64,000 bases of DNA from Candidatus Buchananbacteria bacterium (GCA_013359225.1 JABWCG010000002.1:49470-113469), one strand, 5' to 3'; counted from the first letter of the stretch, positions 3,885 to 57,251 are shown. Numbers and translations are program-made. Notes: generated by a model from the letters alone, not told the origin.

Positions 3885-5402
3885 ATGTCCGCCAAAGTTT
3901 ATTCCGCCGCTGTTCTCGGTTTGAATTGTGAACTGGTTGAAGTTGAAGCTGATTTAAGCCCGGCGTTGCCCGGTATTTTTGTAGTCGGTTTGCCCGATAA
4001 GGCGGTTGATGAATCGCGTGAGCGGGTCAGATCCGCAATTAAAAATTCCAGTTTGTTGATGCCACGCGGTAAAGTGACAATTAATCTCGCTCCGGCTGAC
4101 TTGAAAAAAGAAGGTCCGTCGTATGATCTGCCGATCGCCGTAAGTATTTTATTGGCGTCAAATCAAATTAAATTGGACGAAGCCCAGCAGAAACTGTTTG
4201 TCGGTGAGCTAGCCTTGGACGGCAACTTGCGGCCAATTAACGGAGTTTTGGCGATTTGTCTTTTTGCAAAAAAGCATGCCATTAAAGAGATATATTTACC
4301 AGCCGCTAATGTTAAAGAGGCAAGCCTAGTATCGGGGTTGAATTTATATGGTTGTCAGAGTTTGAAACAGTTAGTGAACCATTTTCGTCGAGAGGAAACG
4401 ATTAAACAGTATATTGCTGGTGCGTCCTCATCTCCGGAGTTACACAATTCATCCTATGATATGGCGTACGTTAAGGGCCAACAACACGTTAAGCGCGCTT
4501 TAGAGATTGCGGCTGCTGGCGGCCACAATATTCTTATGAGCGGCCCGCCTGGTTCTGGCAAGACGCTTTTAGCAAAGAGTATGACAACAATTTTGCCGGC
4601 GATGACTAAAGATGAAGCCTTAGACGTAACTATGATTTACAGTGTGGCCGGGTTATTGTCACCCGCCACCCCATTGGTGACTATTCGGCCGTTTCGTAGT
4701 CCGCATCATACAGCTTCCGGCGTGGCACTGGTGGGCGGCGGCACTTGGCCGCGGCCGGGTGAAATATCATTAGCACATCGCGGAGTGTTGTTTCTGGATG
4801 AATTTCCCGAATTCTCACGAAGCGTGTTGGAAAATTTGCGCCAGCCGCTAGAGGATGGCGTGATTTCAGTTTCACGAGCCGCCGGGACACTGCAGTTTCC
4901 GGCTCAGTTTATGCTGGTTGCGGCGATGAATCCTTGTCCGTGCGGCTATTTAAATGACCCTGAACATCAGTGTATTTGTTCGCCGTCGCAGATTATCAAT
5001 TATCAAAAAAAGATTTCCGGCCCGCTGCTTGACCGTATTGATTTGCACGTTGAGGTACCAAAAGTAAAATTTGATAAATTGACTCAAAATGTTTTATCAG
5101 AACCTTCTTCGGCGATTCGTCAGCGGGTTGAAGCGGCACGGCGCGTGGCACAACAACGGTTTAAAGATATGGCGATTATTACGAACGCTGAAATGAGTTC
5201 ACGCCTGGCAAAAGAATTTTGCACGGTTGATGATGAGACGCTAAATTTGTTGCGCCAGGCAGTCGATCAGCTTAGCCTGTCAACCCGATCATATTTTCGG
5301 ATTCTTAAATTGTCGCGCACTATTGCCGATTTGGCTGGTGAAAAAGATATTAAATTAGAACATGTAGCTGAGGCATTACAATATCGGCCAAAGATTGAAT
5401 AG
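3885..5402 (+). CDS. comM: YifB/ComM family Mg-chelatase-like AAA+ ATPase
   Basis: N-terminal Lon-like domain, Walker A GPPGSGKTLLAK, Walker B VLFLDEFPEF, C-terminal ComM-type domain. GAGGTG RBS precedes the ATG at 3885; the track ORF begins 15 nt earlier. Confidence 0.8.
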   Translation: MSAKVYSAAVLGLNCELVEVEADLSPALPGIFVVGLPDKAVDESRERVRSAIKNSSLLMPRGKVTINLAPADLKKEGPSYDLPIAVSILLASNQIKLDEAQQKLFVGELALDGNLRPINGVLAICLFAKKHAIKEIYLPAANVKEASLVSGLNLYGCQSLKQLVNHFRREETIKQYIAGASSSPELHNSSYDMAYVKGQQHVKRALEIAAAGGHNILMSGPPGSGKTLLAKSMTTILPAMTKDEALDVTMIYSVAGLLSPATPLVTIRPFRSPHHTASGVALVGGGTWPRPGEISLAHRGVLFLDEFPEFSRSVLENLRQPLEDGVISVSRAAGTLQFPAQFMLVAAMNPCPCGYLNDPEHQCICSPSQIINYQKKISGPLLDRIDLHVEVPKVKFDKLTQNVLSEPSSAIRQRVEAARRVAQQRFKDMAIITNAEMSSRLAKEFCTVDDETLNLLRQAVDQLSLSTRSYFRILKLSRTIADLAGEKDIKLEHVAEALQYRPKIE

Positions 5403-5491: not shown

Positions 5492-5809
5492 ATGCCTAAG
5501 AAAACGGTATGCGAGTGGTTTATCAAGCCGCTTGACGATTTTACCAACGAAGCCATTGCCCGCCTGATGGCTGATCGCTGTGAGTCAGACGTCAGCAGCT
5601 TGAATTTTTCCTTGGTGGATAATCAAGGCGAAAGCCATGATGTGTGGAGCGTTGACTATCCTGTGGTGGCAACGTTTCAAAGATCAAAACAACCAGTCCG
5701 GTTTAAGGTTTTTACCCGCGAGGGCAGATCCTCTCCGCTCCGGCCGTGGAAGTTTGGCGTTCGTCGTCGGCAGGTGAAGCCAAAAGTCCATAAGAGGGCT
5801 GTGTCGTGA
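5492..5809 (+). CDS. hypothetical small basic protein
   Basis: 105-aa ORF followed by a hairpin terminator (cccattcaagtttgaatggg + T-run about 5836-5862); no recognisable motif. Confidence 0.35.
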   Translation: MPKKTVCEWFIKPLDDFTNEAIARLMADRCESDVSSLNFSLVDNQGESHDVWSVDYPVVATFQRSKQPVRFKVFTREGRSSPLRPWKFGVRRRQVKPKVHKRAVS

Positions 5810-44154: not shown

Positions 44155-45600
44155 CTAAAACCATAGCCATACGACGAGATAGACTGGTATGAGAATCAAC
44201 AGACTGTACTTGAGTATATAGCTTAGGAAGCTGGGACATTTGACACCAGCAGCTTCCGCAATGGATTTTACCATCAGGTTAGGGCCATTGCCGATATACG
44301 TCATGGCGCCGAAGAATACTGCGCCAACTGATATTGCAATCACGTGGGCAGGGTAGAGTGCCAGCAGGTAGATCACCTGTAGTTGATCAAACGACAACGA
44401 TTCTCCGGCGTAGTATTTGTTGATGGTTGCAAGCATCAACTGAACCTCTCCGGAAACGATGGTTGGGGGTGCGGCACTGCTGAGTATGGTTTGTACCTGC
44501 GTGATTGTCTCTTGGTTTACTAGCAAGCCTGTAGCCGTGACAAGAAAATTCAAGTACGTCGGGGCATTGTCTAGTACTGACGAGAGGCTACCAGTAGCCC
44601 AAAAGAATTGTCCGGGGGTGCAGATGCCAAGCTCGCAGGCATTGCACTCCAGCCACTCCAGCGCCGGAATCATAGTGGCAAAAATCCCAAAAAAGAGAAT
44701 TGCCACTTCAGTGATCGGCCGGAATTTGAAATCGTTTTTCTGGTACACCCGGCGGCGAGTGGAAAACAACGAAGTTAGGGCGCTACCCATCATCACGATT
44801 TCGCGCAGGGGGCTATCAAGAAAGACTGCTCCCAGAATAACCCCGACAAAAAGGATGTTTTGCACTCCTTCGCTGCCGCTTGAAACGGTTTCGTCTGGTT
44901 TGTGACGGTATCTAATGGGGAATTTGTGGATGTGCCACCAGTCAATGATGTAAAACACCGTCAACACTATCGCGATCGTCGTGATCCACGGCAAGACAAC
45001 TCTGGTGGTTATCCAGAAAAACGGTATTCCCTGGAGGTATCCAAGGAATAGCGGCGGGTCACCAATCGGAGTAAGCGCTCCTCCAATGTTACTTACCACA
45101 AAGATGAAAAACACGATGTGGTGAGGTCTGACCCGACCGCGGTTGAGCCGCAGATATGGTCTGATCAAAATCATTGAAGCACCCGTTGTTCCAACAATGT
45201 TAGCAATCACCGCTCCGATTGCCAGCATAATGACGTTGGTTAGGGGAGTTGCTTGGCCTGGCACGTTGATGTGAATTCCTCCGGCTACCACATAGAGCGA
45301 ACCGATTAGGCAGATAAAGCTGATGTATTCGTAGCTTGTCTCTACTAATCTTTCGGACTGATTCAGGGACAGGTAATAGCCGATAGTAATGGCCGCCAGC
45401 CCAAAGGAGACAACGAAGTAGTATTTTTCCCACCACCGGTTCAGGAATGGCCCCAGGGCGATCGCCAGCAAGAGTGCTGCAAAAGGCAGCATCATGACCG
45501 GGCTTACGCCGCTTGAGTCTGTTGCTTCGGCAAACGCTAAATTGCTAAAGAGCACGATTGCCACAACTGTTGTCATTCTCATCTTGTTCATCCTAAACAT
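44155..45600 (-). CDS. IT-superfamily permease (ArsB/NhaD-like), higher-GC paralogue of the 32462-33853 gene
   Basis: 481 aa, signal-like N-terminus, 10 or more TMs, SVLDNAPTYL and IGNGPN motifs; noticeably higher G+C than neighbours. Confidence 0.45.
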   Translation of the reverse strand: MFRMNKMRMTTVVAIVLFSNLAFAEATDSSGVSPVMMLPFAALLLAIALGPFLNRWWEKYYFVVSFGLAAITIGYYLSLNQSERLVETSYEYISFICLIGSLYVVAGGIHINVPGQATPLTNVIMLAIGAVIANIVGTTGASMILIRPYLRLNRGRVRPHHIVFFIFVVSNIGGALTPIGDPPLFLGYLQGIPFFWITTRVVLPWITTIAIVLTVFYIIDWWHIHKFPIRYRHKPDETVSSGSEGVQNILFVGVILGAVFLDSPLREIVMMGSALTSLFSTRRRVYQKNDFKFRPITEVAILFFGIFATMIPALEWLECNACELGICTPGQFFWATGSLSSVLDNAPTYLNFLVTATGLLVNQETITQVQTILSSAAPPTIVSGEVQLMLATINKYYAGESLSFDQLQVIYLLALYPAHVIAISVGAVFFGAMTYIGNGPNLMVKSIAEAAGVKCPSFLSYILKYSLLILIPVYLVVWLWF

Positions 45601-45884
45601 GCTACGCGCCTCCTTGTTTTTGTTGAACCAACCTAGTTATGCAACCCAGGATGGCCGCATTATATGAAATATATATATTTTGTCAAGGGTCACTAAAAAT
45701 AAAAAGGCTTATTTTAGCCATTTTTAACGGTTTATAATTTTTTTCTATTTTTAATGCATAACCAGCGGGGTCAAATAATATAGATTGCCGCGGATGAATT
45801 TTTAATATTTAGCTAGGTTGACATTTTTAATGCAGGCTGATAAGGTCTAGCTGACAATTGGGTCAACTTTAGGAGGAATGTGCA

Positions 45885-46418
45885 ATGCGAAGCAGAATCT
45901 GTACCTTGTTGGTGGCTGACGCCACGGCCGAAGAATTTTCTCCTTTTGGATCGCTGATTGATCCGCAAGAGGATCAGCGGTCTGCCACTGAGGTTTTGTC
46001 CAAAGACGGGGTGTTTGCCTATTACCCGCAGGACGAAAGCAAGATGCTTAATCCCGGTGGCGAACAGCTGGTTTGTTCGCCGCTTGAGATGTGTTCCCGG
46101 CCGCGCACTGTCCGGGGGCAAATGGAGTACCACCATTGCCATGAAACGCTTTTGTTCCTGGATAACGTTATCCTGGTGGTCGGGCCGCAAGTGCCCGAAT
46201 CGGGGTCGATGGACGGTATCACCCCGCAAGACTTCGCGGCGTTTGCCGTCGAGAAGAACTGTGCCGTGGTGTTGAAACCCCGGACCCTGCATGCCCTGGC
46301 TTTTCCGCGGAGTAACCGGACCGCTCGGGGGCTGGTGTTCTTGCCCTATCAGGCCCACCAAACCGACTGTCACTTCGTCGATATCCCGGAGGGGGCGATC
46401 CTTAAGCCGCAACTTTAG
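45885..46418 (+). CDS. cupin-fold protein resembling ureidoglycolate lyase (AllA family)
   Basis: AEEFSPFGSLID and EYHHCHETLLFLD align by eye with E. coli AllA blocks (EAFSAYGDVIE; ERHPLGTQAFIPM); AGGAGG RBS; high G+C. Confidence 0.45.
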   Translation: MRSRICTLLVADATAEEFSPFGSLIDPQEDQRSATEVLSKDGVFAYYPQDESKMLNPGGEQLVCSPLEMCSRPRTVRGQMEYHHCHETLLFLDNVILVVGPQVPESGSMDGITPQDFAAFAVEKNCAVVLKPRTLHALAFPRSNRTARGLVFLPYQAHQTDCHFVDIPEGAILKPQL

Positions 46419-46585
46419 CGGCTCAGTCGACCGTGCTATATAGTTGCCGGACAGAGTGTTATGCTCTGCCCGGTTTTTATTTTTTACAAAACCAATATGT
46501 TCAATACTATTAACGATAAATATATATTGACAAACGATAAAGAATAAATTAAGATGAAAATATAACAATTTATAATAATTAATCT

Positions 46586-47074
46586 ATGAAAAAAGGCTCA
46601 ATAACATTTCTTCAGATAGTCATTGTAGTTCTGGGCATTGGTGCTCTCGCTCTCTTGCTCTGGGAACCTCGCGTTGAGGGCGTAAATGCGAACGCCACTA
46701 CGCTTCGTGAGATATATTTTGATGATCCCTTTTTGGCGTATGTGTACATCGGCTCCATTGCTTTTTTTGTTGCGCTCTATCAAGCGTTCAAACTGCTCGG
46801 GTACATAGGACGAAGTGAAGTATTTTCGCACCAGGCCGTAAAAGCTCTACGGACTATAAAATACTGCGCGTTGACCATTATTGCTTTTCTTGTGGGCGCG
46901 GAAATTTATATCAATATTGTTCAGCGCAGAGTGGAGGAAGATATTGCGGGAGGCGTCATGGTGGGTCTTTTTCTGATTTTTGTTTCAATGGTTGTCGCGA
47001 CCGCCGCGGCCGTGTTTGAAAAAACGTTACGAACCGCCGTAGAGATAAAAACCGAGAACGATTTAACAGTATAA
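46586..47074 (+). CDS. DUF2975-like membrane protein
   Basis: 162 aa, 4 TMs; immediately followed by a YozG-type HTH gene (the typical DUF2975-HTH pair). Confidence 0.45.
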   Translation: MKKGSITFLQIVIVVLGIGALALLLWEPRVEGVNANATTLREIYFDDPFLAYVYIGSIAFFVALYQAFKLLGYIGRSEVFSHQAVKALRTIKYCALTIIAFLVGAEIYINIVQRRVEEDIAGGVMVGLFLIFVSMVVATAAAVFEKTLRTAVEIKTENDLTV

Positions 47075-47352: not shown

Positions 47353-47475
47353 TAAGACGTTTAGGTTTTTGTAGTGAAGTTGTAATGGCGGGACGCAGTA
47401 AAACGAGTTATAGAGTTTTTTCAGAACAACAAAGGGTATTATTACGTCCCAAAATTTTAAGTTAGTCAAAACAAT

Positions 47476-47823
47476 ATGACAGAAATCCTACATAATCCAA
47501 CAAACCCAACAGAATTGGGTACTCTGCGGGACACATCGGTTGCCAGTCAAGCACCTAAAGCAAAATTTGACGATCCTTCAAGGGTTGGTCAAAAAAAAGA
47601 GCAGAAGCGCACGCGAGAGAAGAAAGACGCGTTTGTGGCAGCTTGTAAAGGTCCCGTGAAAAGTATTGTTACCATGTGCAGAAAAGTTGGAATACACCGC
47701 GACACCTTTTATGCCTGGCGGCGAGCCGATCCGGAGTTTGTAAAAAGGATCCACAACAGCCGAGATGTTTTTTTGACTGAGTTGGAGGCAAGTCTTAAGG
47801 CGCGGGATAAATCCGACACTTAG
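47476..47823 (+). CDS. HTH DNA-binding protein of terminase-small-subunit / IS-transposase HTH type
   Basis: MCRKVGIHRDTFYAWRRADPEF is the characteristic helix-turn-helix of phage TerS / ISxxx OrfA proteins. Confidence 0.4.
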   Translation: MTEILHNPTNPTELGTLRDTSVASQAPKAKFDDPSRVGQKKEQKRTREKKDAFVAACKGPVKSIVTMCRKVGIHRDTFYAWRRADPEFVKRIHNSRDVFLTELEASLKARDKSDT

Positions 47824-48010
47824 GCGTAAAATGTAATTGACAATTTCTAACCTAAACTGCTCTTCTGAGCAGCATGGTTTAAAAACTCACGAAGATACTG
47901 AACCCCACGTTCAGCGATTCTTCGTGAGTCATATCGGGAAACTGGTATGGGGCTTAAAAACCCTGCTGGCGTGGGGCTTTGTGTATCTAAAAATTAATAA
48001 CCTAAAACTT

Positions 48011-48919
48011 ATGACCAACATAGCGCATGGAGGAAAGAAGTGGCTAACTTTGGTGGCCCTGGCTATCATAGCCACACCACTTTTAGCTGCCTGCACTCCT
48101 CAAACACCATCAGCCAATAATGGGCAGAAGCAAACTCAAGAGGCTCAGCTTGACACTACGCAAGAATCAGAAGCTGATACTAACCAGCAGCCTGCTGATA
48201 TTACTGAATCGGATCAACAAGCAGATGAAAGCTTTTTAGTCATCCGAGTAATTGACGGCGACACGGTTGAGTTGGAGGACGGTTCACGCGTCAGATATAT
48301 CGGCATCGATACTCCTGAGACCGTGGACCCTTCAAAACCAGTCCAGTGTTTTGGCAAAGAAGCCTCTCAAAAGAATACTGAGTTAGTTTTGAACAAGCAA
48401 GTCAGGTTAGAAAAAGATATCAGTGACAAAGACCGCTACGGCCGGTTGCTACGGTATGTTTATGTTGGTGACACTTTTGTAAACCTGGAATTAGTTAAGC
48501 AAGGCTTTGCCAGTTCATACTCATACCCACCAGATGTTAAATACCAAGACCAGATCGTAGCAGCGCAAACTGAAGCCAGAGAGCAGAAACGAGGTCTATG
48601 GTCAGCCTGCAATACCGGATCAACTAACAACGCAGCACCCCAACTAAACAGTGGTTCGACAAACACCAACACGAATACAGTCACGCCACAACCAACCCCA
48701 ACTACGCCGACCCCGGCTCCGCAAGAACCAGCTACGACACCAACTCAGCAATGTAATATTAAAGGCAACATTAGCGCTGCCGGTGAAAAAATTTATCACG
48801 TGCCAGGTTGTGGTAGCTACAACCAAACTAAAATTGACGAAAGCCAAGGAGAGAAATGGTTTTGTAGCGAAGCCGAGGCAGTAGCTGCTGGCTGGAGGAA
48901 GGCTAAAAACTGTCCTTGA
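48011..48919 (+). CDS. secreted thermonuclease (staphylococcal-nuclease fold) lipoprotein with Thr/Pro linker and extra C-terminal domain
   Basis: Lipobox LLAAC (start at ATG 48011), SNase motifs VIRVIDGDTVEL, RYIGIDTPE and DRYGRLLRYVYV, linker TPQPTPTTPTPAPQEPATTPT, C-terminal HVPGCGSYNQTKIDESQGEKWFCSEAEAVAAGWRKA. Confidence 0.75.
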   Translation: MTNIAHGGKKWLTLVALAIIATPLLAACTPQTPSANNGQKQTQEAQLDTTQESEADTNQQPADITESDQQADESFLVIRVIDGDTVELEDGSRVRYIGIDTPETVDPSKPVQCFGKEASQKNTELVLNKQVRLEKDISDKDRYGRLLRYVYVGDTFVNLELVKQGFASSYSYPPDVKYQDQIVAAQTEAREQKRGLWSACNTGSTNNAAPQLNSGSTNTNTNTVTPQPTPTTPTPAPQEPATTPTQQCNIKGNISAAGEKIYHVPGCGSYNQTKIDESQGEKWFCSEAEAVAAGWRKAKNCP

Positions 48920-49018
48920 TTATACCCCCTTACCTTAGATGGAAATTTTATCTGGGCCCGCTACAATCTGTTGCGGGCTTAAATAATAAAGTAAAAAATG
49001 TTATAATTACATCAAATA

Positions 49019-50194
49019 ATGTCTACACGATTACTAACAAAAATTGAATTAAAGGAGGATCTGGCAAAGGTTCTTCTTAAGCAAGGATACCGAGTTAAAA
49101 ATAGTGTTTTGCAGTTGAGGAAAGATGACCGAGAATCCAAACGTCAAGCTCATTTGCTTGCCAAAGCTGAACGAATTATAGCTCAGGAGAATTTCATTTT
49201 AAAAAACATATCACTCATTGAAAAATCTTTGATTAATGGTTGTGACTTGGATGTGAGTAAAATTAAGCCAAAATTGATCTTGGTGGAACCTCGCAGTGAG
49301 TGGGAAAAAATTTTCCGATGGTGGAGCCTTGTCTGGTGGAGCCTGCCAAATGAAAGGTCTTATGGAAGACAAATGAGATTTATAGTTTGGGACTCATACC
49401 ATAAAGCACCTATAGGTTTAATCGGTTTGCAAAGCCCTATTTTAAGTTGGTCGGTTAGAGATTCGTTTTTAAAAATCAAACCGGAAAAAAGAGATTACTG
49501 GGTAAACCAATCTTTAAGTGCACAGCGGTTGGGAGCGTTGCCCCCATACAATGATGTTTTGGGAGGCAAACTTGTTGCTTCTCTGCTTACGTCAAATGTG
49601 GTACGCAATGAATTCGAAAGAAAATATCGCAACGCTAAAACTGTAATGAAGAACCGTAAGATTCCACCAAGATTGTTATTTATAACAACTACAGGGGCTT
49701 ATGGAAAAAGTAGCATTTATTCTCGGCTCAAATTTGGTGGTCGTGAAATTGTAAAATTTATTGGGTATAGTCACGGAGTTGGCTCTTTTCACATCCCAAA
49801 TTATCTTTATGATAATTTAATAAAATATTTAGCCTCTAAAGACATCGACACCTCAAGGGGCTACGGTTCAGGTCCATCACGTAAATTACGTTTGATTGAC
49901 CAGTCAATGTCACTATTAGGATTTAAACATGGTACCAAACATGACATTAAAAGAGGTGTTTATATTTTTGAACTCACAACCAACTTGGAGGCTGTTATAA
50001 GTAAAGGCGAAAAACCAAAGTGGGTACACAGGTCAGTCAAGGCGCTGAGTAAATACTGGATGGATCGGTGGGGTATCCCTCGTAGTCAACGCGACAATAC
50101 TTACCTTAATTTTAATAAGGACAAATTTATCACCCAAACCATTAAAGAGTTAGAGGGATTTAAAAAATCATATAAAAATATCCGCAATGCCTGA
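49019..50194 (+). CDS. unrecognised basic protein, first gene of the NurA/HerA cassette
   Basis: 391 aa, no TM, Lys/Arg/Trp-rich, no motif I can assign; stop overlaps the NurA-like start by 8 nt (ATGCCTGA). Confidence 0.55.
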   Translation: MSTRLLTKIELKEDLAKVLLKQGYRVKNSVLQLRKDDRESKRQAHLLAKAERIIAQENFILKNISLIEKSLINGCDLDVSKIKPKLILVEPRSEWEKIFRWWSLVWWSLPNERSYGRQMRFIVWDSYHKAPIGLIGLQSPILSWSVRDSFLKIKPEKRDYWVNQSLSAQRLGALPPYNDVLGGKLVASLLTSNVVRNEFERKYRNAKTVMKNRKIPPRLLFITTTGAYGKSSIYSRLKFGGREIVKFIGYSHGVGSFHIPNYLYDNLIKYLASKDIDTSRGYGSGPSRKLRLIDQSMSLLGFKHGTKHDIKRGVYIFELTTNLEAVISKGEKPKWVHRSVKALSKYWMDRWGIPRSQRDNTYLNFNKDKFITQTIKELEGFKKSYKNIRNA

Positions 50195-51392
50195 TTCAAG
50201 CCAGGGACAATCGCAGGTTTATAGACACTTACCCGAAGAATTACTTGGAGATATTCTTGAACATGTTCCTCAAACTGTAGAAAAAATGAATAAAATGTTT
50301 GATATTCAGGACGAACCGATTAAACAAGGCATAGAAACATTAAAACAAAAAAACATGATCACGAGTCTCTCTGGTAATGTTTTTTCAACCTCATTAATTG
50401 CAGTAGACGGTGGAATGGTACTTGAAAAAATGTCAGGTACAGACATTTTGTTGGCCGTTGCAGTAGGAGTTGAGGGTTTGACTGAAGATAAGGGAAGCGG
50501 TTGGGAAAAGGGAAAAAATCAGTTTGTCCAGTGGCAGACTGTTCTTCCACACGACGGAGCGAATGCTCGACTTGCCCAAGGAGTTATGTTTTTGATGGAA
50601 ATGACCGTCCTTTCAAATGATTCACATGAAATACGTATTATGGATGGGACCCACTTTACTCCAATATTGAAAGTTAATAGTTTGCTATCTTCTAACGAAG
50701 AAAAGGCTGGGGCTGAATACAAGCAAGCACTAAAAGATTTTTTAAAGGAAACATATAATAAAATAATTCCTGATATACCTAACATTATTTCATCCGCTTT
50801 AACTGACGATAAGATAGTAGCCATTGCAAAGTACAGTTCCTCAAGGGATATCTTGGATGCCTACTTGAAAGATAAAAATATAAGCCTGGATGACAAAACT
50901 TTTTTTACTCTTGGGCTCTCGGAGAATGAGTATACAAAACCTTTGTCAGTTGGCCAAAGCAAGGAAGAGCGTGGAAAAGTCTGGAACGACTTGCACATAA
51001 AATGTAATTTAAAATTTAGTGATGTTAATGATAATGAGTTAGATACTTTATTTAAAAAAATTATCAAGCCTATCAGAACTCAGGAATTCCCTCATAAAGA
51101 CTCTTCATTATTTTTTACTTATTTTAAACCGTTTAACCAAGGTCCTGCCTACAGAATAGAGATAAAAAAATCTCTTGCGGATGATATCAATAGATTGGAA
51201 AAAGTTCTATTGAGTATTAAAAAGCAAATTGTATTTCCAGAAATTCGAGAACCTTTTCCTCAATACTTAGTTGATCTTATGGCTAAAAGTGTTGCTGGGG
51301 GGTTATTTGCTATTCAAGAGGCCATTAGGTTATCGCCGGAGCTTAATATTGATAAAGGCAAATTCGATTTACTTTTTCCATATAGAACATAA
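50187..51392 (+). CDS. NurA-like nuclease (RNase-H-like fold, 5'-3' exo/endonuclease partner of HerA)
   Basis: SLIAVDGGMVLEK (NurA motif I, catalytic Asp) and IMDGTH further downstream, about 400 aa, immediately upstream of a HerA-type ATPase. Confidence 0.5.
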   Translation: MPDSSQGQSQVYRHLPEELLGDILEHVPQTVEKMNKMFDIQDEPIKQGIETLKQKNMITSLSGNVFSTSLIAVDGGMVLEKMSGTDILLAVAVGVEGLTEDKGSGWEKGKNQFVQWQTVLPHDGANARLAQGVMFLMEMTVLSNDSHEIRIMDGTHFTPILKVNSLLSSNEEKAGAEYKQALKDFLKETYNKIIPDIPNIISSALTDDKIVAIAKYSSSRDILDAYLKDKNISLDDKTFFTLGLSENEYTKPLSVGQSKEERGKVWNDLHIKCNLKFSDVNDNELDTLFKKIIKPIRTQEFPHKDSSLFFTYFKPFNQGPAYRIEIKKSLADDINRLEKVLLSIKKQIVFPEIREPFPQYLVDLMAKSVAGGLFAIQEAIRLSPELNIDKGKFDLLFPYRT

Positions 51393-51411
51393 TTATTAAA
51401 TTAGACTCAAA

Positions 51412-53301
51412 ATGACAGAATCAAAGAAAATTTCAGAAGAATTACTTAAAGTCCTAAATGACCAGTCGCGCGCAATCGTTGGTATCACCGGATCACCGAG
51501 TAATACCTTGGATATAGAAATAGACATAACTGAAACAAGTAAATCAGACCGTGTTTTGGGGCAGATGGTTTATGTTGTTGTTGAGGAAGACAATAGGAAA
51601 GTCTTGGTAATTGGACAAATTATTAAGATTGAAACAAAAAACAGATGGCATGAAGACATGGCCTTTAAGGGAGTTATAAAAAGACATGGGAAGTTGCCTC
51701 ATCTGAGTGGAGCTGCCGACAATAGACTGGCTAAAATCAGCGTCCAGGCATGTTATGATTTAGGCGGTTCAGAGCCAAGAACGCACATCCTTGGAACCTC
51801 TCCTTCAACTGGTGAAAAAGTGCAGAAGATGGATAATGAAGTTATGAAAAAATTGATGGAAAACCATGGCGAATCAGTCACTTATATTGGTAAAGTCTAC
51901 GGTACAGATGTTAACCTGCCATTCTGGTTTAAACATTTTGACAAAACTCTTAGCGGAGAGTTAGGAGCAAAGGACGCTTATCATATTGGAATTTTTGGAA
52001 AGACCGGGTCAGGCAAAACTGTCACCGCTGCAATGGCTTTATTGGGGTATGCTAAGAATAAAAATAACATGAATATACTGGTTTTGGACCCACAGGGACA
52101 GTTTTATGTTGACAACGAACTATTACCTAACGACAAAAAACTTGAACAAGCCGTCGGTGATATTGGGATGAAATACAAAAAGTTTAAAATTTTGGAAGAT
52201 TTATATTTACCAGGCAATGCCTTTGACTTATTTGGTAATCTTTTATTAAAGAGTGGTTTTGTGAGTAAGTCATTCAATATCCTTAGTGACAGGGAGGTGA
52301 ATGCAGCTGACGCAATCTCAGAATATTTAGAATCGTATAATAAAAAAAGTAAGGGTAAGTCGGCAAACTTAACAAAATTATCAGACGAGGGTTATAGCCT
52401 TGATTTAATGAAAAAAACACTTCAGAAATTTACTGAGGTTACAGAAGATGCAAGTGGTAAAAAAAGTTATAGCCGGTATTTGGATATGATATACTCCGAT
52501 GGTCGAAGAAAAGATCAAGTTATTGGAAAATTAAATTCCGTCTTAAGTAATGAAACTTATATTAAAAATTTATTTGACAGACGCTGGAGCCCTGTAGCTA
52601 AGTTATTTGCACAGGTTAAAAATGATGGGACTAATAAGATTACTGTAAATGAGATAATAGATTTAGTTTCATCTGAAACCGACAAAGGAAATTTTGTAGT
52701 CCTTGATATGAGCGAGAGGGGTGGTTCAGAAATCAGTGAGAACTTACAAGCATTGTTTGTGAAGATGGTTCAAGAGGGTCTAATGGAAAAGGGGGAAGAC
52801 TTCTACACCAAAGATAAAAAAGTGAATTGTCTTGTAGTTATGGATGAAGCTCATCGTTTCATTTCTCATGCGTCATCGGACCTCCAGATAGTCGAATTAA
52901 CCAAAGATATTATTGATGCTGTTAGAACCACCCGCAAGTTTGGCATTGGCTATATGTTTATAACGCAGACCATAGAGTCTCTTGATGAGGAAATCTTGAG
53001 ACAAATGCGAATCTTTGGTTTTGGCTATGGACTTACATCTGGATCAGAACTTAGAACGGTTGGCGAAATTATTAACAACCCATCAGCCATTCAGCTATAT
53101 CGCTCTTTTATTGACCCCAGTAGTAACGGTAAGTTCCCATTTATGTTTTTTGGCCCAATTTCGCCACTTTCATTTACTGGGTCGCCATTGTTTTTAGAAG
53201 TTTTTACTGACTATGGTATGTTTGAGACCGTAAATGGTGTCACATCTAATACAGACGCTGGAGGTAAGCCCGAGGAATCAAAAAATGTTGAAAGTAGTTG
53301 A
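51412..53301 (+). CDS. HerA-like (DUF87) FtsK/HerA-superfamily ATPase
   Basis: N-terminal HAS-barrel-like segment (VGITGSP...GQMVYVVVEEDNRKVLVIGQI), Walker A GIFGKTGSGKT, Walker B LVVMDEAHRF, no TM helices (argues against a VirD4/TraG coupling protein). Confidence 0.65.
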   Translation: MTESKKISEELLKVLNDQSRAIVGITGSPSNTLDIEIDITETSKSDRVLGQMVYVVVEEDNRKVLVIGQIIKIETKNRWHEDMAFKGVIKRHGKLPHLSGAADNRLAKISVQACYDLGGSEPRTHILGTSPSTGEKVQKMDNEVMKKLMENHGESVTYIGKVYGTDVNLPFWFKHFDKTLSGELGAKDAYHIGIFGKTGSGKTVTAAMALLGYAKNKNNMNILVLDPQGQFYVDNELLPNDKKLEQAVGDIGMKYKKFKILEDLYLPGNAFDLFGNLLLKSGFVSKSFNILSDREVNAADAISEYLESYNKKSKGKSANLTKLSDEGYSLDLMKKTLQKFTEVTEDASGKKSYSRYLDMIYSDGRRKDQVIGKLNSVLSNETYIKNLFDRRWSPVAKLFAQVKNDGTNKITVNEIIDLVSSETDKGNFVVLDMSERGGSEISENLQALFVKMVQEGLMEKGEDFYTKDKKVNCLVVMDEAHRFISHASSDLQIVELTKDIIDAVRTTRKFGIGYMFITQTIESLDEEILRQMRIFGFGYGLTSGSELRTVGEIINNPSAIQLYRSFIDPSSNGKFPFMFFGPISPLSFTGSPLFLEVFTDYGMFETVNGVTSNTDAGGKPEESKNVESS

Positions 53302-53939
53302 CAGAGATAAGGCAGTTGATATAATTAAGTTATTACAATTCAAAACGCAGGTAGGAAGTATGTTACTGGGTCATTTTGACCCGGTGGGACGGACACAAAA
53401 AATCCGCACTACTCAGGACTAAAAACTTGAGCACAGCTTCTATACGCAGACGGTTGTTTACTGGGCGTACTGACCATTTGTAACATTTAGGTCAGCCTAT
53501 CGGCGGGTCTTGTGTCTTGAAAAAGCAAGATTGAGCTTAGGAGCCTCCAAATTTTTTCACGAATTAACTATTCGTCCAAAAATTTGGGGGCTTTTTGTAT
53601 TTCACCAGCTACATTCCGTCCCGAGTTGGACAGGTGCACGTAGCTGGGTACCTGTTCAGCCCGGGGCGGATTTTGCTTAATAGAGCAAATCAGCAGGCTG
53701 AAGGGATAATTTAATCAGGCTTAGGAAGGTGCTATAACCAAGATGAATATTAGAGAGGAAAATCTACAACGCTTCATCGACCTCTACGAGAGGAAATATG
53801 CTGTCCGCTTAGGCAGGCAGGAGGCTTATAATATGTTTTTAAAGCTGATAAATCTGGTAAAAATAGCCAATTTTGATGCTCACAGCCAGCAATTTACTGA
53901 CCACACTTAATGTAGTATCGTTGTGGTTGGGAGAAAAAT

Positions 53940-55601
53940 ATGCAAAATCAAGAGGAAAAATTAATCTATGTCTCCTACAGGAGAAAATCAAGCGAGTCTG
54001 AAGATCGGCAGACTTTAAGCCTGGATTCCCAAAAAAAGGAGCTTAGTGCTTTTGCCGACAAATATGGGCTAAGGGTTAAATTTGATTTTGCAGAATCTCA
54101 GTCAGCCTATAGTCGTGGCCGCCCGAAATTTTTAGAAATGGTTGAGTTAATTGAATCAGGTCAGGCTAATGCCATATTGGTTTATCATATTTCCAGATTG
54201 GCGAGGAATATGACAGACGGTGGTTTGATTATTGATATGCTAAAGGACGGAGTTATTAAAGAAATAAGAACACCGCACGAACAATATACAAAAGATTCCG
54301 GCCAGGAATTTATATTAGCCCTTAATTTTGCCATGTCAAAGAAGAGCTCTGACGATACCTCAGAGTTTGTTAAAAGAGACATTGAAGCAAAATTACGAAA
54401 GGGAGAATGGCCCGGCATGGCGCCGACAGGCTATTTGAATCTTGATAGTAATGGAAAAATAGCTGGCAAAAATTATAGTTTAGAAAAACAAATTGCATTG
54501 AGCAAAATTAAAAGACCATTGAGACGGATAGAGCATGATCCATTTTTAGCACAACTAATTTCGAAATTATTTGAGAAATCAGCGACCAACCAATACATAC
54601 TGGATGAACTGGCTGAAATGGCTATGGAGTGGGGTATTATTGGCAACAGAAGCGGCAAAAAGCTCAGCGAATCATCAGTTTATCGTATTTTAACCAACCC
54701 TTTCTATTACGGGGCTATTCGTTGGAAAGAGACTATTATTGAACCAGAGGATTTGCCAGCACAAAGCCGCCATGAAGCAATTATCAGTCGGGAGTTATTT
54801 AACAGAGTTCAGGAAGTCCTGGGTTTAAGGACAAAATACGTCAGTCCCAAACGATGTTATAAATATTCTAATATTATGACTTGTGGTATCTGCGGCGGCC
54901 ACATGTCAGGGATTACCGCCAAGGATATTACCTACTATCGTTGTTGTAAGTGCAGAGGCGTCGCTTATGTGAAAGAGGGTGAGCTTGAAAAACAGATAGT
55001 GGCTTTTTTAGAAACTATGACCATAGACGAAGATTTTTATAAGCTGGCAATCGAGGAAATAAATCATGCTAATGAGAACGAAATCAAAACCAGAGATGCA
55101 ATCAAGGACCAGCAGGATCGGGAGCTAAAACATTGTCAGATCAGATTTGATAATTTACTAAGGCTTAAAATTTCACCTGAAAATAAAAACGGAGAACTTT
55201 TAAGTGAGGCTGATTTTGTCAGACAGAAAAAGATCATTGACGAAGAGATGTCATCTATCAAGGAAAGGATTGGTGACACAGACAGGCAAAGTCAGAATTG
55301 GTTTGATTTGTGTGTAGAATACTTTGATTTTACAACCAGGCTGGTTAATAAGTTTAGAGAAGCCGGTCCGGAGAAACGTCGGGAGATATTTGAATTTTGT
55401 TACTATAACCCGCAAATAAACGCGCAAATACTAACGAATAGCGCGAATAACCCGCATAAGTTTATCATTCAGGCAAATTCCATAAACAGCGCCACTATAA
55501 CCGCAAATAATGACTTAAGTAAAACAAAAACAGCAGCCAATATGGCTTCTGTTTCCGAATGGCGGGAGCGAAGGGGCTCGAACCCTCGACCTTCTGCGTG
55601 A
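53940..55601 (+). CDS. large serine recombinase (integrase)
   Basis: N-terminal resolvase catalytic domain (YVSYRRKSSESEDRQTLSLDSQ...ILVYHISRLAR), recombinase domain, zinc ribbon (CGICGGHM...YYRCCKCRG), coiled-coil; 3' end overlaps the tRNA-Asp gene. Confidence 0.85.
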   Translation: MQNQEEKLIYVSYRRKSSESEDRQTLSLDSQKKELSAFADKYGLRVKFDFAESQSAYSRGRPKFLEMVELIESGQANAILVYHISRLARNMTDGGLIIDMLKDGVIKEIRTPHEQYTKDSGQEFILALNFAMSKKSSDDTSEFVKRDIEAKLRKGEWPGMAPTGYLNLDSNGKIAGKNYSLEKQIALSKIKRPLRRIEHDPFLAQLISKLFEKSATNQYILDELAEMAMEWGIIGNRSGKKLSESSVYRILTNPFYYGAIRWKETIIEPEDLPAQSRHEAIISRELFNRVQEVLGLRTKYVSPKRCYKYSNIMTCGICGGHMSGITAKDITYYRCCKCRGVAYVKEGELEKQIVAFLETMTIDEDFYKLAIEEINHANENEIKTRDAIKDQQDRELKHCQIRFDNLLRLKISPENKNGELLSEADFVRQKKIIDEEMSSIKERIGDTDRQSQNWFDLCVEYFDFTTRLVNKFREAGPEKRREIFEFCYYNPQINAQILTNSANNPHKFIIQANSINSATITANNDLSKTKTAANMASVSEWRERRGSNPRPSA

Positions 55602-55636
55602 CAGGCAGACGCTCTAACCAACTGAGCTACGCCCCC
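55560..55636 (-). tRNA. tRNA-Asp (anticodon GUC), CCA encoded
   Basis: The reverse complement folds as a canonical cloverleaf: acceptor GGGGGCG/CGCUCCC, D-arm GCUC-AGUUGGUUA-GAGC, anticodon arm UCUGC-CUGUCAC-GCAGA, T-arm GAGGG-UUCGAGC-CCCUU, 3' GCCA. Confidence 0.85.
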
Positions 55637-56858: not shown

Positions 56859-57251
56859 TGGTGGAGATGAGGGGAATCGCACCCCTGTCTAGAAAGAAGA
56901 GATAAAGTAGGTTTACAAGTCTATTCAGCTTTTAATCTTGATCGAAGCGTCTAAAACTGACGAAACCGCGTTCGATCCAGCCTGGGTTGTTTTAACTGAT
57001 TAGTTAGGCAGCTAAGCAGTCTAGCCTAATGTATAGCACCAGGGTCCGGCTATTAGGCGTGGTCCGGTCTGATGGCTTTGGGTTTTAGGCCAAAGCTGGA
57101 GCTAAAGCCAAGGAGCTGAAAGCGCCTCGAACTTTAGCGACAAGTGATTTGGCACTTATCTTTGATGGCAGGTTGATATTTACGAGCTAAACCGTACCAA
57201 CGCTCGACTTGAGTACTTTAAACCAAAATTCTATCGATTTTAGTCATCCCC
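56859..57251 (-). ncRNA. ssrA: tmRNA (SsrA)
   Basis: 5' GGGGAUGACU... pairs with 3' ...CAUCUCC-A-CCA including the G3:U wobble; T-arm GGGG-UGCGAUU-CCCC; internal reading frame ending ...GCU UUA GCU CCA GCU UUG GCC UAA (tag ending ALAPALA*); immediately downstream of smpB. Confidence 0.75.

Follow-up and report, generated by a model that had tools for sequence, protein, structure and literature searches.

We analysed a stretch of 64,000 nucleotides (hereafter the window) from Candidatus Buchananbacteria (GCA_013359225.1, JABWCG010000002.1:49470-113469), which belongs to a metagenome-assembled genome. At positions 47386-55559, the window carries an element of 8,174 bp that adjoins the gene for tRNA-Asp(GTC) at 55560-55636. 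A first-pass annotation, which had been made from the sequence alone, described this region as an integrated mobile element with accessory cargo, and the attachment-site cores, the intact recombinase, the varying cargo of related elements, and the base composition all agree with that description. In our view, the region is very probably an integrative element that is driven by a large serine recombinase (LSR), sits at the extreme 3′ end of tRNA-Asp, and carries exchangeable cargo. The tRNA gene, as had been annotated, lies on the minus strand and is the sole tRNA of the window (ARAGORN; Rfam tRNA model, 70.9 bits). The features that define the element ends and its backbone are as follows.

47384-47393, no strand: attL core, left copy of the direct repeat AATGGCGGGA, with the predicted crossover inside GCGG
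47386-47460, plus strand: detached 3′ end of the recombinase gene (P′ side of attP), which encodes WRDAVKRVIEFFQNNKGYYYVPKF and then a stop codon
53743-53910, plus strand: backbone open reading frame (ORF) of 55 amino acids, a candidate accessory or directionality factor
53940-55601, plus strand: large serine recombinase in its integrated form, 553 amino acids, of which the last 12 codons are antisense tRNA
55558-55567, no strand: attR core, right copy of AATGGCGGGA, in which TGG is the encoded CCA end of the tRNA
55560-55636, minus strand: intact tRNA-Asp(GTC), the integration target and B′ side of attB (ARAGORN, Rfam)

The 10-bp direct repeat AATGGCGGGA occurs only twice in 64 kb, at 47384 and 55558, and none of 100 shuffles yielded two copies. 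The segment 47386-47460, which the first-pass annotation had overlooked, is an intact, in-frame remnant of 24 codons whose first letters, TGGCGGGA, are as at the tRNA end at 55560. It matches the tails of free-form homologues of the recombinase and is the top match (22.1 bits) of a small hidden Markov model (HMM) that was built from such tails and used to locate detached tail remnants. Because the remnant directly follows the left repeat copy, attP is placed inside the 3′ end of the recombinase gene. Joining position 55567 to 47394 rebuilds a free-form recombinase of 564 amino acids together with attP (junction TTTCCGAATGGCGGGACGCAGTAAAACG), and joining 47393 to 55568 rebuilds attB (junction GAAGTTGTAATGGCGGGAGCGAAGGGG), in which tRNA-Asp is followed by the left flank. 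GCGG is the only sequence common to both ends in sister elements; hence, the crossover is placed where the discriminator base meets the acceptor stem. The tRNA body comes from the host, and the element supplies the CCA end and the trailer alone. Both attL and attR could thus be identified from the unique 10-bp repeat and the recombinase tail remnant at the left end. The element ends are fixed to the base and the target tRNA is left intact, as expected for an integrative element. Three other routes to the sites did not lead further. A generic repeat search gave no tRNA-derived direct repeat among the families shown, exact-repeat searches in sister loci were mostly unsuccessful (the boundaries were derived from the protein tails instead), and the signal in a dyad analysis of attP was too weak to place the central dinucleotide.

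The recombinase ORF of 553 amino acids contains a Resolvase domain (Pfam 9.8e-18), a Recombinase domain (6.3e-13, above the Pfam cut-off), and a Zn_ribbon_recom match of 23.2 bits, which is slightly below the cut-off of 25.3 bits. Residues 15-485 align with the solved SPbeta-type LSR YokA/SprA, and the 3′ end of the ORF overlaps the 3′ 42 nt of tRNA-Asp. The first-pass description of a 553-residue LSR that abuts and partly overlaps the tRNA is borne out by these results. In an alignment of 20 sequences that includes the window recombinase, the residues Y13, R15, K16, S17, Q24, R61, R86, and R89 are invariant, and so are C315, C318, and C335 of the zinc ribbon. All family-invariant columns, including the catalytic motif Y13-R15-K16-S17, are present in the window protein; the gene is, therefore, intact and not a disrupted pseudogene.

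The recombinase has two alternative C-termini. The free form (564 amino acids) ends in WRDAVKRVIEFFQNNKGYYYVPKF, and the integrated form (553 amino acids) ends in WRERRGSNPRPSA, so that integration exchanges the last ~22 residues for 12 residues that are read from the antisense strand of the tRNA. We inspected the C-termini of the 70 best recombinase homologues, down to ~38% identity. Most of them end in W-R-x-R-(D/G)-S-N-P-R-P-x-A, which is the translated reverse complement of a tRNA 3′ end, with the W codon TGG corresponding to the encoded CCA. A minority carry the other conserved tail, that of the free form, for example GREKVDEVITFFKEYKGYYYIPKLPN. The tail motif (V/L)-x-x-(V/I)-(R/I)-T-(F/Y)-F is kept in recombinases that are only 27-30% identical to that of the window. 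Between the tails of L036 and L009, which are the closest pair, there are eight synonymous codon differences and one that changes the amino acid, and across the set, the F, Y, P, and K positions vary synonymously. As the codon differences are mainly synonymous, the tail is constrained as a protein sequence. A part of it probably doubles as the P′ half-site of attP.

For a wider comparison, 82 related loci were fetched from genome and metagenome collections, and 52 of them have an evaluable recombinase 3′ end. The recombinase ORF overlaps a tRNA on the opposite strand in 39 of the 52. The overlap is mostly 40-42 nt (overall 10-109 nt), and the tRNAs concerned are those for Asp (19 loci), Asn (12), Trp (5), His (2), and Ser (1). 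The relatives all come from metagenomes, many of them named Patescibacteria. With the tail HMM, many integrated loci were seen to have a detached tail remnant at a distance of 5-11 kb upstream of the recombinase, and these remnants delimit elements of about 5-11 kb (among others L006, L011, L021, L036, L009, L062, L049, L080, L058/59, L068, and L069). Two further cases bear on the state of such elements. The contig L025 (Ga0172381_10009910) is 9,165 nt long, has a terminal overlap of 123 nt, lacks a tRNA, and encodes an LSR with the free-form tail next to a type III restriction-modification system as cargo. It probably represents a related element in its circular state. The loci L015 (1-3464) and L016 (990-4453), each from a different metagenome, match at 100% identity over 3,464 nt. 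Their sequences part exactly after ...CTGGCTC, at the CCA end of the tRNA; beyond this point, L015 continues into tRNA-Asn and L016 into genes for a caspase, a ThsB-like TIR protein, an S24 peptidase, and a small helix-turn-helix (HTH) protein. The two are one element in two junction states. No relatives of the recombinase were found in IMG/VR, and the LSRs of GenBank phages are at most 28% identical to it. A viral origin was rejected on these grounds.

The ORF of 55 amino acids upstream of the recombinase had been missed in the first-pass annotation. It has tblastn matches in 26 loci and lies 5-175 nt upstream of the recombinase start in 25 of them. The related ORFs are 45-55 amino acids long (e.g., L001 2225-2377, L006 8879-9022, and L021 9507-9674) and have the consensus ISEEGLQKFIDLYEKKYSVKLxRQEAFxMFxKLINxVKIA. 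A search for a known family gave no match. Its size and position fit a recombination directionality factor, and it may act as one. The backbone of the element consists of this ORF, the LSR, and the tail, and the slot between the tail and the 55-residue ORF holds exchangeable cargo. The cargo proteins of the window have no tblastn matches in the sister loci, which rules out a cargo common to the sister elements. Sister elements at tRNA-Asp bear quite different cargo, so the cargo genes are not syntenic next to the tRNA in relatives, in line with the first-pass reading of an insertion. What the slot holds in sister elements is mostly defence genes, namely type I, IIG, II, and III restriction-modification systems, Mrr with Fic, MerR-DUF7380-DUF4209, and a caspase with a TIR-like protein. 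By their gene content, these elements look like a family of compact defence-gene shuttles in metagenome assemblies, many of which are named Patescibacteria.

The composition of the element also sets it apart. A sliding profile of GC content and tetranucleotides, which had been proposed as a check on the first-pass reading, gives the element as an outlier on both measures. It is the 8-kb stretch of lowest GC content in the window (0.393 vs 0.431), and its tetranucleotide distance from the rest of the window is the largest (0.23; median 0.117) and peaks at 47,501. The description of the upstream genes as AT-rich does not hold for the nuclease gene, which has a GC content of 0.47.

The steps by which the element would move can be proposed from the known behaviour of LSRs. 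Dimers of the LSR would bind the attP site of the element in its circular state and the chromosomal attB site. The enzyme would then cut both duplexes at the central dinucleotide inside GCGG, and a rotation by 180 degrees and religation would follow. On integration, the tail would stay at attL, and the ORF would then read the 12 antisense-tRNA codons. A recombination of attP with attB by the window LSR, with a crossover of 2 bp, would account for the products that can be seen, namely the common 10-bp core, the split tail, and the two junction states of one sister element. A further step is tentative, and we rate it as doubtful. Since the tail is present only in the free enzyme and lost on integration, the recombinase itself might be a sensor of the integration state and set the directionality. 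The tail could, for example, be required for integration or for enzyme turnover, and the tail-less form would be quiescent until the 55-residue protein triggers excision.

The cargo slot and the intergenic region between cargo and backbone contain the following features.

47476-47823, plus strand: small HTH protein, 115 amino acids, with an HTH that resembles those of small terminases and HTH_Tnp_1 transposase proteins
47849-47985, plus strand: LOOT RNA with a 3′ extension of ~22 nt; the Rfam model covers 47849-47963, and a T-rich stretch follows
48011-48919, plus strand: staphylococcal-type nuclease, a lipoprotein with a C-terminal sunset domain (Pfam SNase 3.6e-29; NCBIfam NucI-like)
49019-50194, plus strand: DruA/DUF4338 protein (Pfam PF14236 6.3e-56; PADLOC DruA 9.4e-87) with a divergent GNAT-like fold
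50187-51392, plus strand: NurA-like nuclease (Pfam NurA 30.4 bits, cut-off 21)
51412-53301, plus strand: HerA-like P-loop ATPase/translocase (Pfam DUF87 37.3 bits; PADLOC HerA 4.5e-16)
53298-53325, plus strand: sigma-70-type promoter match (TTGACA, 16 nt, TG-TATAAT), 12 of 12 positions, a consensus match only
53537-53597, plus strand: terminator-like hairpin followed by TTTTT (inverted repeat I6, -28.9 kcal/mol)

The slot includes a cassette of three genes for DruA, a NurA-like nuclease, and a HerA-like ATPase. The NurA-like and HerA-like proteins had been named correctly in the first-pass annotation: the former scores above the Pfam gathering score for NurA, and the latter is supported by the DUF87 and PADLOC HerA models and by distant sequence matches in the PDB to HerA 4d2i and TdpA (E = 7e-6). 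The protein at 49019-50194 had been left there as unknown and is identified here, with Pfam and PADLOC, as DruA/DUF4338. In the PDB sequence search, NurA gave no match, and the search with DruA was uninformative. The entries NUM25685.1 and NUM25686.1 of the source genome (NCBI) are 100% identical to the DruA and NurA products. In the NurA-like protein, D74 (in an AVDGG motif), E96, E138, D153, H156, and D363 are invariant in 25 homologues, and the HerA-like protein contains the Walker A motif GKTGSGKT and the Walker B motif VVMDEAH, as read from its sequence.

For the NurA-like protein, more than 460 relatives were found; identity is 63-73% for the best 120, which span Saccharibacteria, Parcubacteria, Bacteroidota, Acidobacteriota, and Omnitrophota. 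The distribution of DruA, with ~1,200 relatives, is like that of the NurA-like protein, and only two very distant NurA-like matches were found on plasmids. The triad was present in all six other contexts that were sampled, with the same gene order and tight spacing. These are a Pyrinomonadaceae genome, where it lies beside a PIN/MazE pair; two soil contigs with a tyrosine integrase adjoining a tRNA, a relaxase with MobC, and a PemK-like toxin gene; Omnitrophus, where it lies between hsdR and an LSR with IS21; two Parcubacteria genomes; and a contig of 608 kb, where it lies beside FRG and HNH genes. DruE, the YprA-like helicase with DUF1998, is found neither in the element, in which all large ORFs are accounted for, nor in the six other contexts. 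Since DruE is absent, the triad is not a Druantia system. A literature search gave no account of a DruA-NurA-HerA combination, and none of the models in PADLOC v2 matches the NurA-like protein. From its genomic association, the triad is most probably an anti-phage or anti-plasmid system. As a translocase-nuclease effector, a ring of the HerA ATPase would pass DNA on to NurA for cleavage, and the GNAT-like DruA might be the sensor or an acyltransferase for self-marking. A separate observation concerns the spread of the cassette. In L086 (6820-12626) and L087, the triad lies beside a tyrosine integrase that adjoins a tRNA, and a relaxase and MobC are encoded upstream; an integrative mobilisable element of another kind is, therefore, a further carrier of the cassette.

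The small HTH protein at the left of the slot had been annotated as terS-like. It matches several PHROG small-terminase families (best E = 1.8e-7), which makes the label defensible, but the support is weak. The Pfam match to HTH_Tnp_1_2 (1.7e-5) is below the cut-off, and the matches span the HTH domain only. A tblastn search found no match to this gene in the sister loci; the small protein of L016 has an equally weak HTH_Tnp_1_2 match that is also below the cut-off. The nuclease, which had been described as a secreted thermonuclease, has an SNase domain and a lipoprotein-like N-terminus that can be read from the sequence, in keeping with that name. Its start is corrected from 47837 to 48011.

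Several points weigh against the mobile element that we propose, and they have to be set against other explanations of the locus. Two short Logan contigs from the source samples give the integrated junction alone, a circular-junction read of the window element was not found, and an empty attB in a close relative was not found by exact-protein look-ups of the flanking genes. In addition, the reconstructed attP shows only modest dyad symmetry (13 of 26 positions), and the free-form tail is not universal, as the recombinase of L016 ends in a short WLRRVA. A fixed, immobile remnant that was acquired once beside tRNA-Asp, with a recombinase that has been domesticated or is inert, would explain the single junction state, the missing empty site, and an integrated recombinase without the conserved tail. 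We consider it improbable because the LSR, the 55-residue ORF, the tail remnant, and both att cores are intact, because the tail is under purifying selection at the protein level in integrated copies, and because relatives were seen as a circular contig and in alternative junction states. Another possibility is that the ORF runs into the tRNA, and that a tail is seen at attL, by a mere accident of reading frames, with no biological meaning. The antisense-tRNA extension would then be whatever follows the crossover up to the next stop codon. An AlphaFold2 structure that was modelled for the free-form homologue P0004 is in accordance with such an accident: the model is confident to about residue 520 and has long helices at 364-466 (a coiled coil), but the tail (residues 523-566) is disordered and no structural role for it is visible. 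In the model, the disordered tail thus resembles a linear motif instead of a segment of a folded domain. An accident is rather unlikely, however, as the same layout recurs in 39 of 52 loci, the tail motif is kept in recombinases that are 27-30% identical, the substitutions in the tail are mainly synonymous (8 to 1 in the closest pair), and an open frame of ~24 codons is kept in integrated copies. A third explanation, a phage satellite or prophage remnant that is packaged by a helper and whose terS-like HTH protein redirects the terminase, would suit the small size of the element, the PHROG matches, and the similar small protein of L016. We regard it as very improbable. Capsid, portal, primase, and replication genes or other hallmarks of satellites are absent among the ORFs, the HTH matches are limited to the HTH domain and fall below the cut-off in Pfam, relatives of the LSR were found neither in IMG/VR nor, beyond 28% identity, in GenBank phages, and the HTH gene has no tblastn homologue in other loci.

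For the cassette, the competing explanation is that the triad is a module for DNA end processing and repair, or for the element's own DNA metabolism, as HerA-NurA is in archaea and Deinococcus, and not a defence system. HerA-NurA is an established machine for end resection (PMC9960219), the triad is highly conserved, and some of its copies lie among ordinary genes. With regard to defence, it also counts as a difficulty that the whole case for it is one of genomic association, that the conservation across phyla (63-73%) is unusually high for a defence system, that some copies lie off recognisable mobile elements, and that PADLOC v2 appears not to cover the triad as a system. A repair role, nevertheless, seems to us the less likely function, though one with an appreciable chance of being correct. 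The triad is patchy across unrelated phyla at 63-73% identity, which argues for horizontal transfer, and it is found repeatedly beside integrases, relaxases, restriction subunits, toxin-antitoxin genes, and insertion sequences. In sister elements, the corresponding slot holds restriction-modification or other defence genes. Moreover, the NurA-HerA pair is always coupled to DruA, a family that is otherwise known from Druantia, and there is no adjacent Mre11 or Rad50 partner.

We compared the element with known LSR systems (A118, SPbeta SprA/YokA, phiC31, Bxb1, and TP901-1, as well as SCCmec Ccr and XisF). It shares with LSR elements and prophages the order of resolvase catalytic domain, recombinase domain, zinc ribbon, and long coiled coil, the position of the integrase at the edge of the element, and att sites that have few bases in common. 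For LSR att sites, only the central dinucleotide must match. The window clade differs in that it targets the 3′ end of tRNA genes, in that attP lies inside the integrase coding sequence, and in that the C-terminus differs between the free and the integrated enzyme. It differs from phage LSRs by its occurrence in metagenome assemblies, many named Patescibacteria, and by an identity of at most 28%. Serine integrases are believed to avoid tRNA genes (Mageeney et al., PMC7192596); that study found only 14 of 297 such cases and called for experimental proof. The clade described here breaks that rule systematically. A literature search for serine recombinases that use tRNA genes in Patescibacteria gave no relevant result.

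Islands at tRNA genes that use tyrosine integrases resemble the element in the use of the tRNA 3′ end, the integrase beside the tRNA, the defence cargo, and the reuse of the locus with different cargo. Unlike them, the window element has a recombinase of another family and chemistry, a common core of 4-10 bp with no duplicated tRNA 3′ segment, and an integrase gene that is convergent with the tRNA and overlaps it. An attP within a gene is known from other systems. In SSV1-type integrases, attP lies within the integrase gene, which is split on integration, and in the integration-dependent immunity of mycobacteriophages, the repressor loses a C-terminal tag on integration. In these systems, as in the window, integration alters the product of the gene that spans attP and thus reports the integration state. 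The window gene differs from these in that it encodes a serine recombinase and is neither split nor truncated; only the last ~22 residues of its product would be exchanged. If the switch outlined above is real, it would be a self-contained directionality switch of a kind that is undescribed for serine integrases. The exchange of tails in any case offers a natural experiment on the relation of the integrase C-terminus to directionality or stability. Serine integrases are prized tools for genome engineering. In this clade, attP and attB are predictable from sequence alone, which could give access to many new site-specific integrases with highly conserved targets. The elements also show gene exchange in the candidate phyla radiation (CPR)/Patescibacteria, which have tiny genomes and poorly known mobile elements.

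The cassette shares with Druantia type I a full-length DruA/DUF4338 protein. It differs from Druantia type I by the absence of DruE, DruB, DruC, and DruD and by the partners NurA and HerA; DruE defines every Druantia type. With HerA-NurA complexes, Sir2-HerA, DUF4297-HerA, and TdpAB, the cassette has in common a HerA-type ATPase and an adjacent nuclease in one operon. In contrast to these systems, it has an obligatory third partner, the GNAT-like DruA, and is mobile and patchy, and its proteins are very divergent from characterised NurA and HerA. The locus as a whole is not categorically new; it is an LSR-driven integrative element with a plausible new defence system. The triad is a concrete candidate for an anti-phage system and may reveal the role of DruA, for which we know of no explanation in Druantia to date.

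The first-pass annotation had also missed a LOOT RNA within the cargo. The match to RF03000 scores 82.5 bits, against a gathering score of 46.4, and covers the full model (1-121). The RNA overlies what a mechanical ORF list gives as the N-terminus of the nuclease. The LOOT motif (Weinberg et al. 2017) reportedly comprises RNAs near tRNAs and recombinase genes. The window copy agrees with Rfam LOOT in its full-length model match and differs in its position inside the cargo of tRNA-targeting LSR elements and in a conserved 3′ extension with a U-run outside the model. Among about 54 related loci that were scanned, five have LOOT (L018 937-1100, L022 4157-4310, L021 6170-6331 on the minus strand, L056 4718-4870, and L063 9450-9608 on the minus strand). 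The RNA is always upstream of the recombinase and lies inside the element wherever the boundaries are known. In all six copies, a stretch of ~22 nt beyond the end of the Rfam model can pair with the tip of the long hairpin, and a U-run comes next. The resulting duplexes have predicted energies of -21.6 to -28.9 kcal/mol, with z-scores of -2.5 to -5.4 against shuffled tails (-28.0 kcal/mol and -4.1 for the window copy). The extension sequences vary among the copies and the pairing is preserved. A -10-like box lies 10-25 nt before each copy, and an ORF in the same orientation follows at 43-80 nt; in five of the six cases, this ORF encodes a membrane or secreted protein. The paired extension suggests either a terminator of the RNA itself or a terminator/antiterminator switch. 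LOOT as a universal partner of the recombinase was ruled out, as it occurs only in the window and in the five loci; as part of the DruA triad, it was ruled out by its absence from L085, L086, and L088. The literature search gave no functional study of LOOT. The RNA has been without an assigned function since 2017 and gains here a genomic context and a model of alternative folds.

Between cargo and backbone, the promoter match at 53298-53325 has an extended TG motif, lies at the end of the HerA gene, and is directed at the backbone genes. The terminator-like hairpin at 53537-53597 follows ~210 nt past it. A look at conservation in 53300-53740 returned the 55-residue ORF as the only conserved item in the area.

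The surroundings of the element had been described as housekeeping genes on both sides. On the right, this is correct: the flank consists of rplT, rpmI, infC, the transfer-messenger RNA (56859-57251 in the Rfam scan of the window), smpB, and an AI-2E transporter gene. On the left, it needs a correction: the immediate neighbours are a DUF2975 gene and a Cro/C1-HTH gene, and arsR is 4 kb further left.

Three minor observations were made in passing. The GC content of the nuclease gene (0.47) exceeds those of the host and of the remaining element, which suggests that this gene was acquired separately. In L061, a gene for a distant member of the recombinase family is directly followed by a group I intron and an AdoCbl-II riboswitch (4417-4642 and 5603-5666), with scores at or barely above the gathering scores. 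Finally, about 1 kb of the window at 45600-46590, between a CitMHS_2 transporter gene and the DUF2975 gene, has a GC content of 0.48-0.49, long ORFs that overlap on the two strands, and no match apart from a weak one to DUF4867; it may be a decayed gene or a miscalled region.

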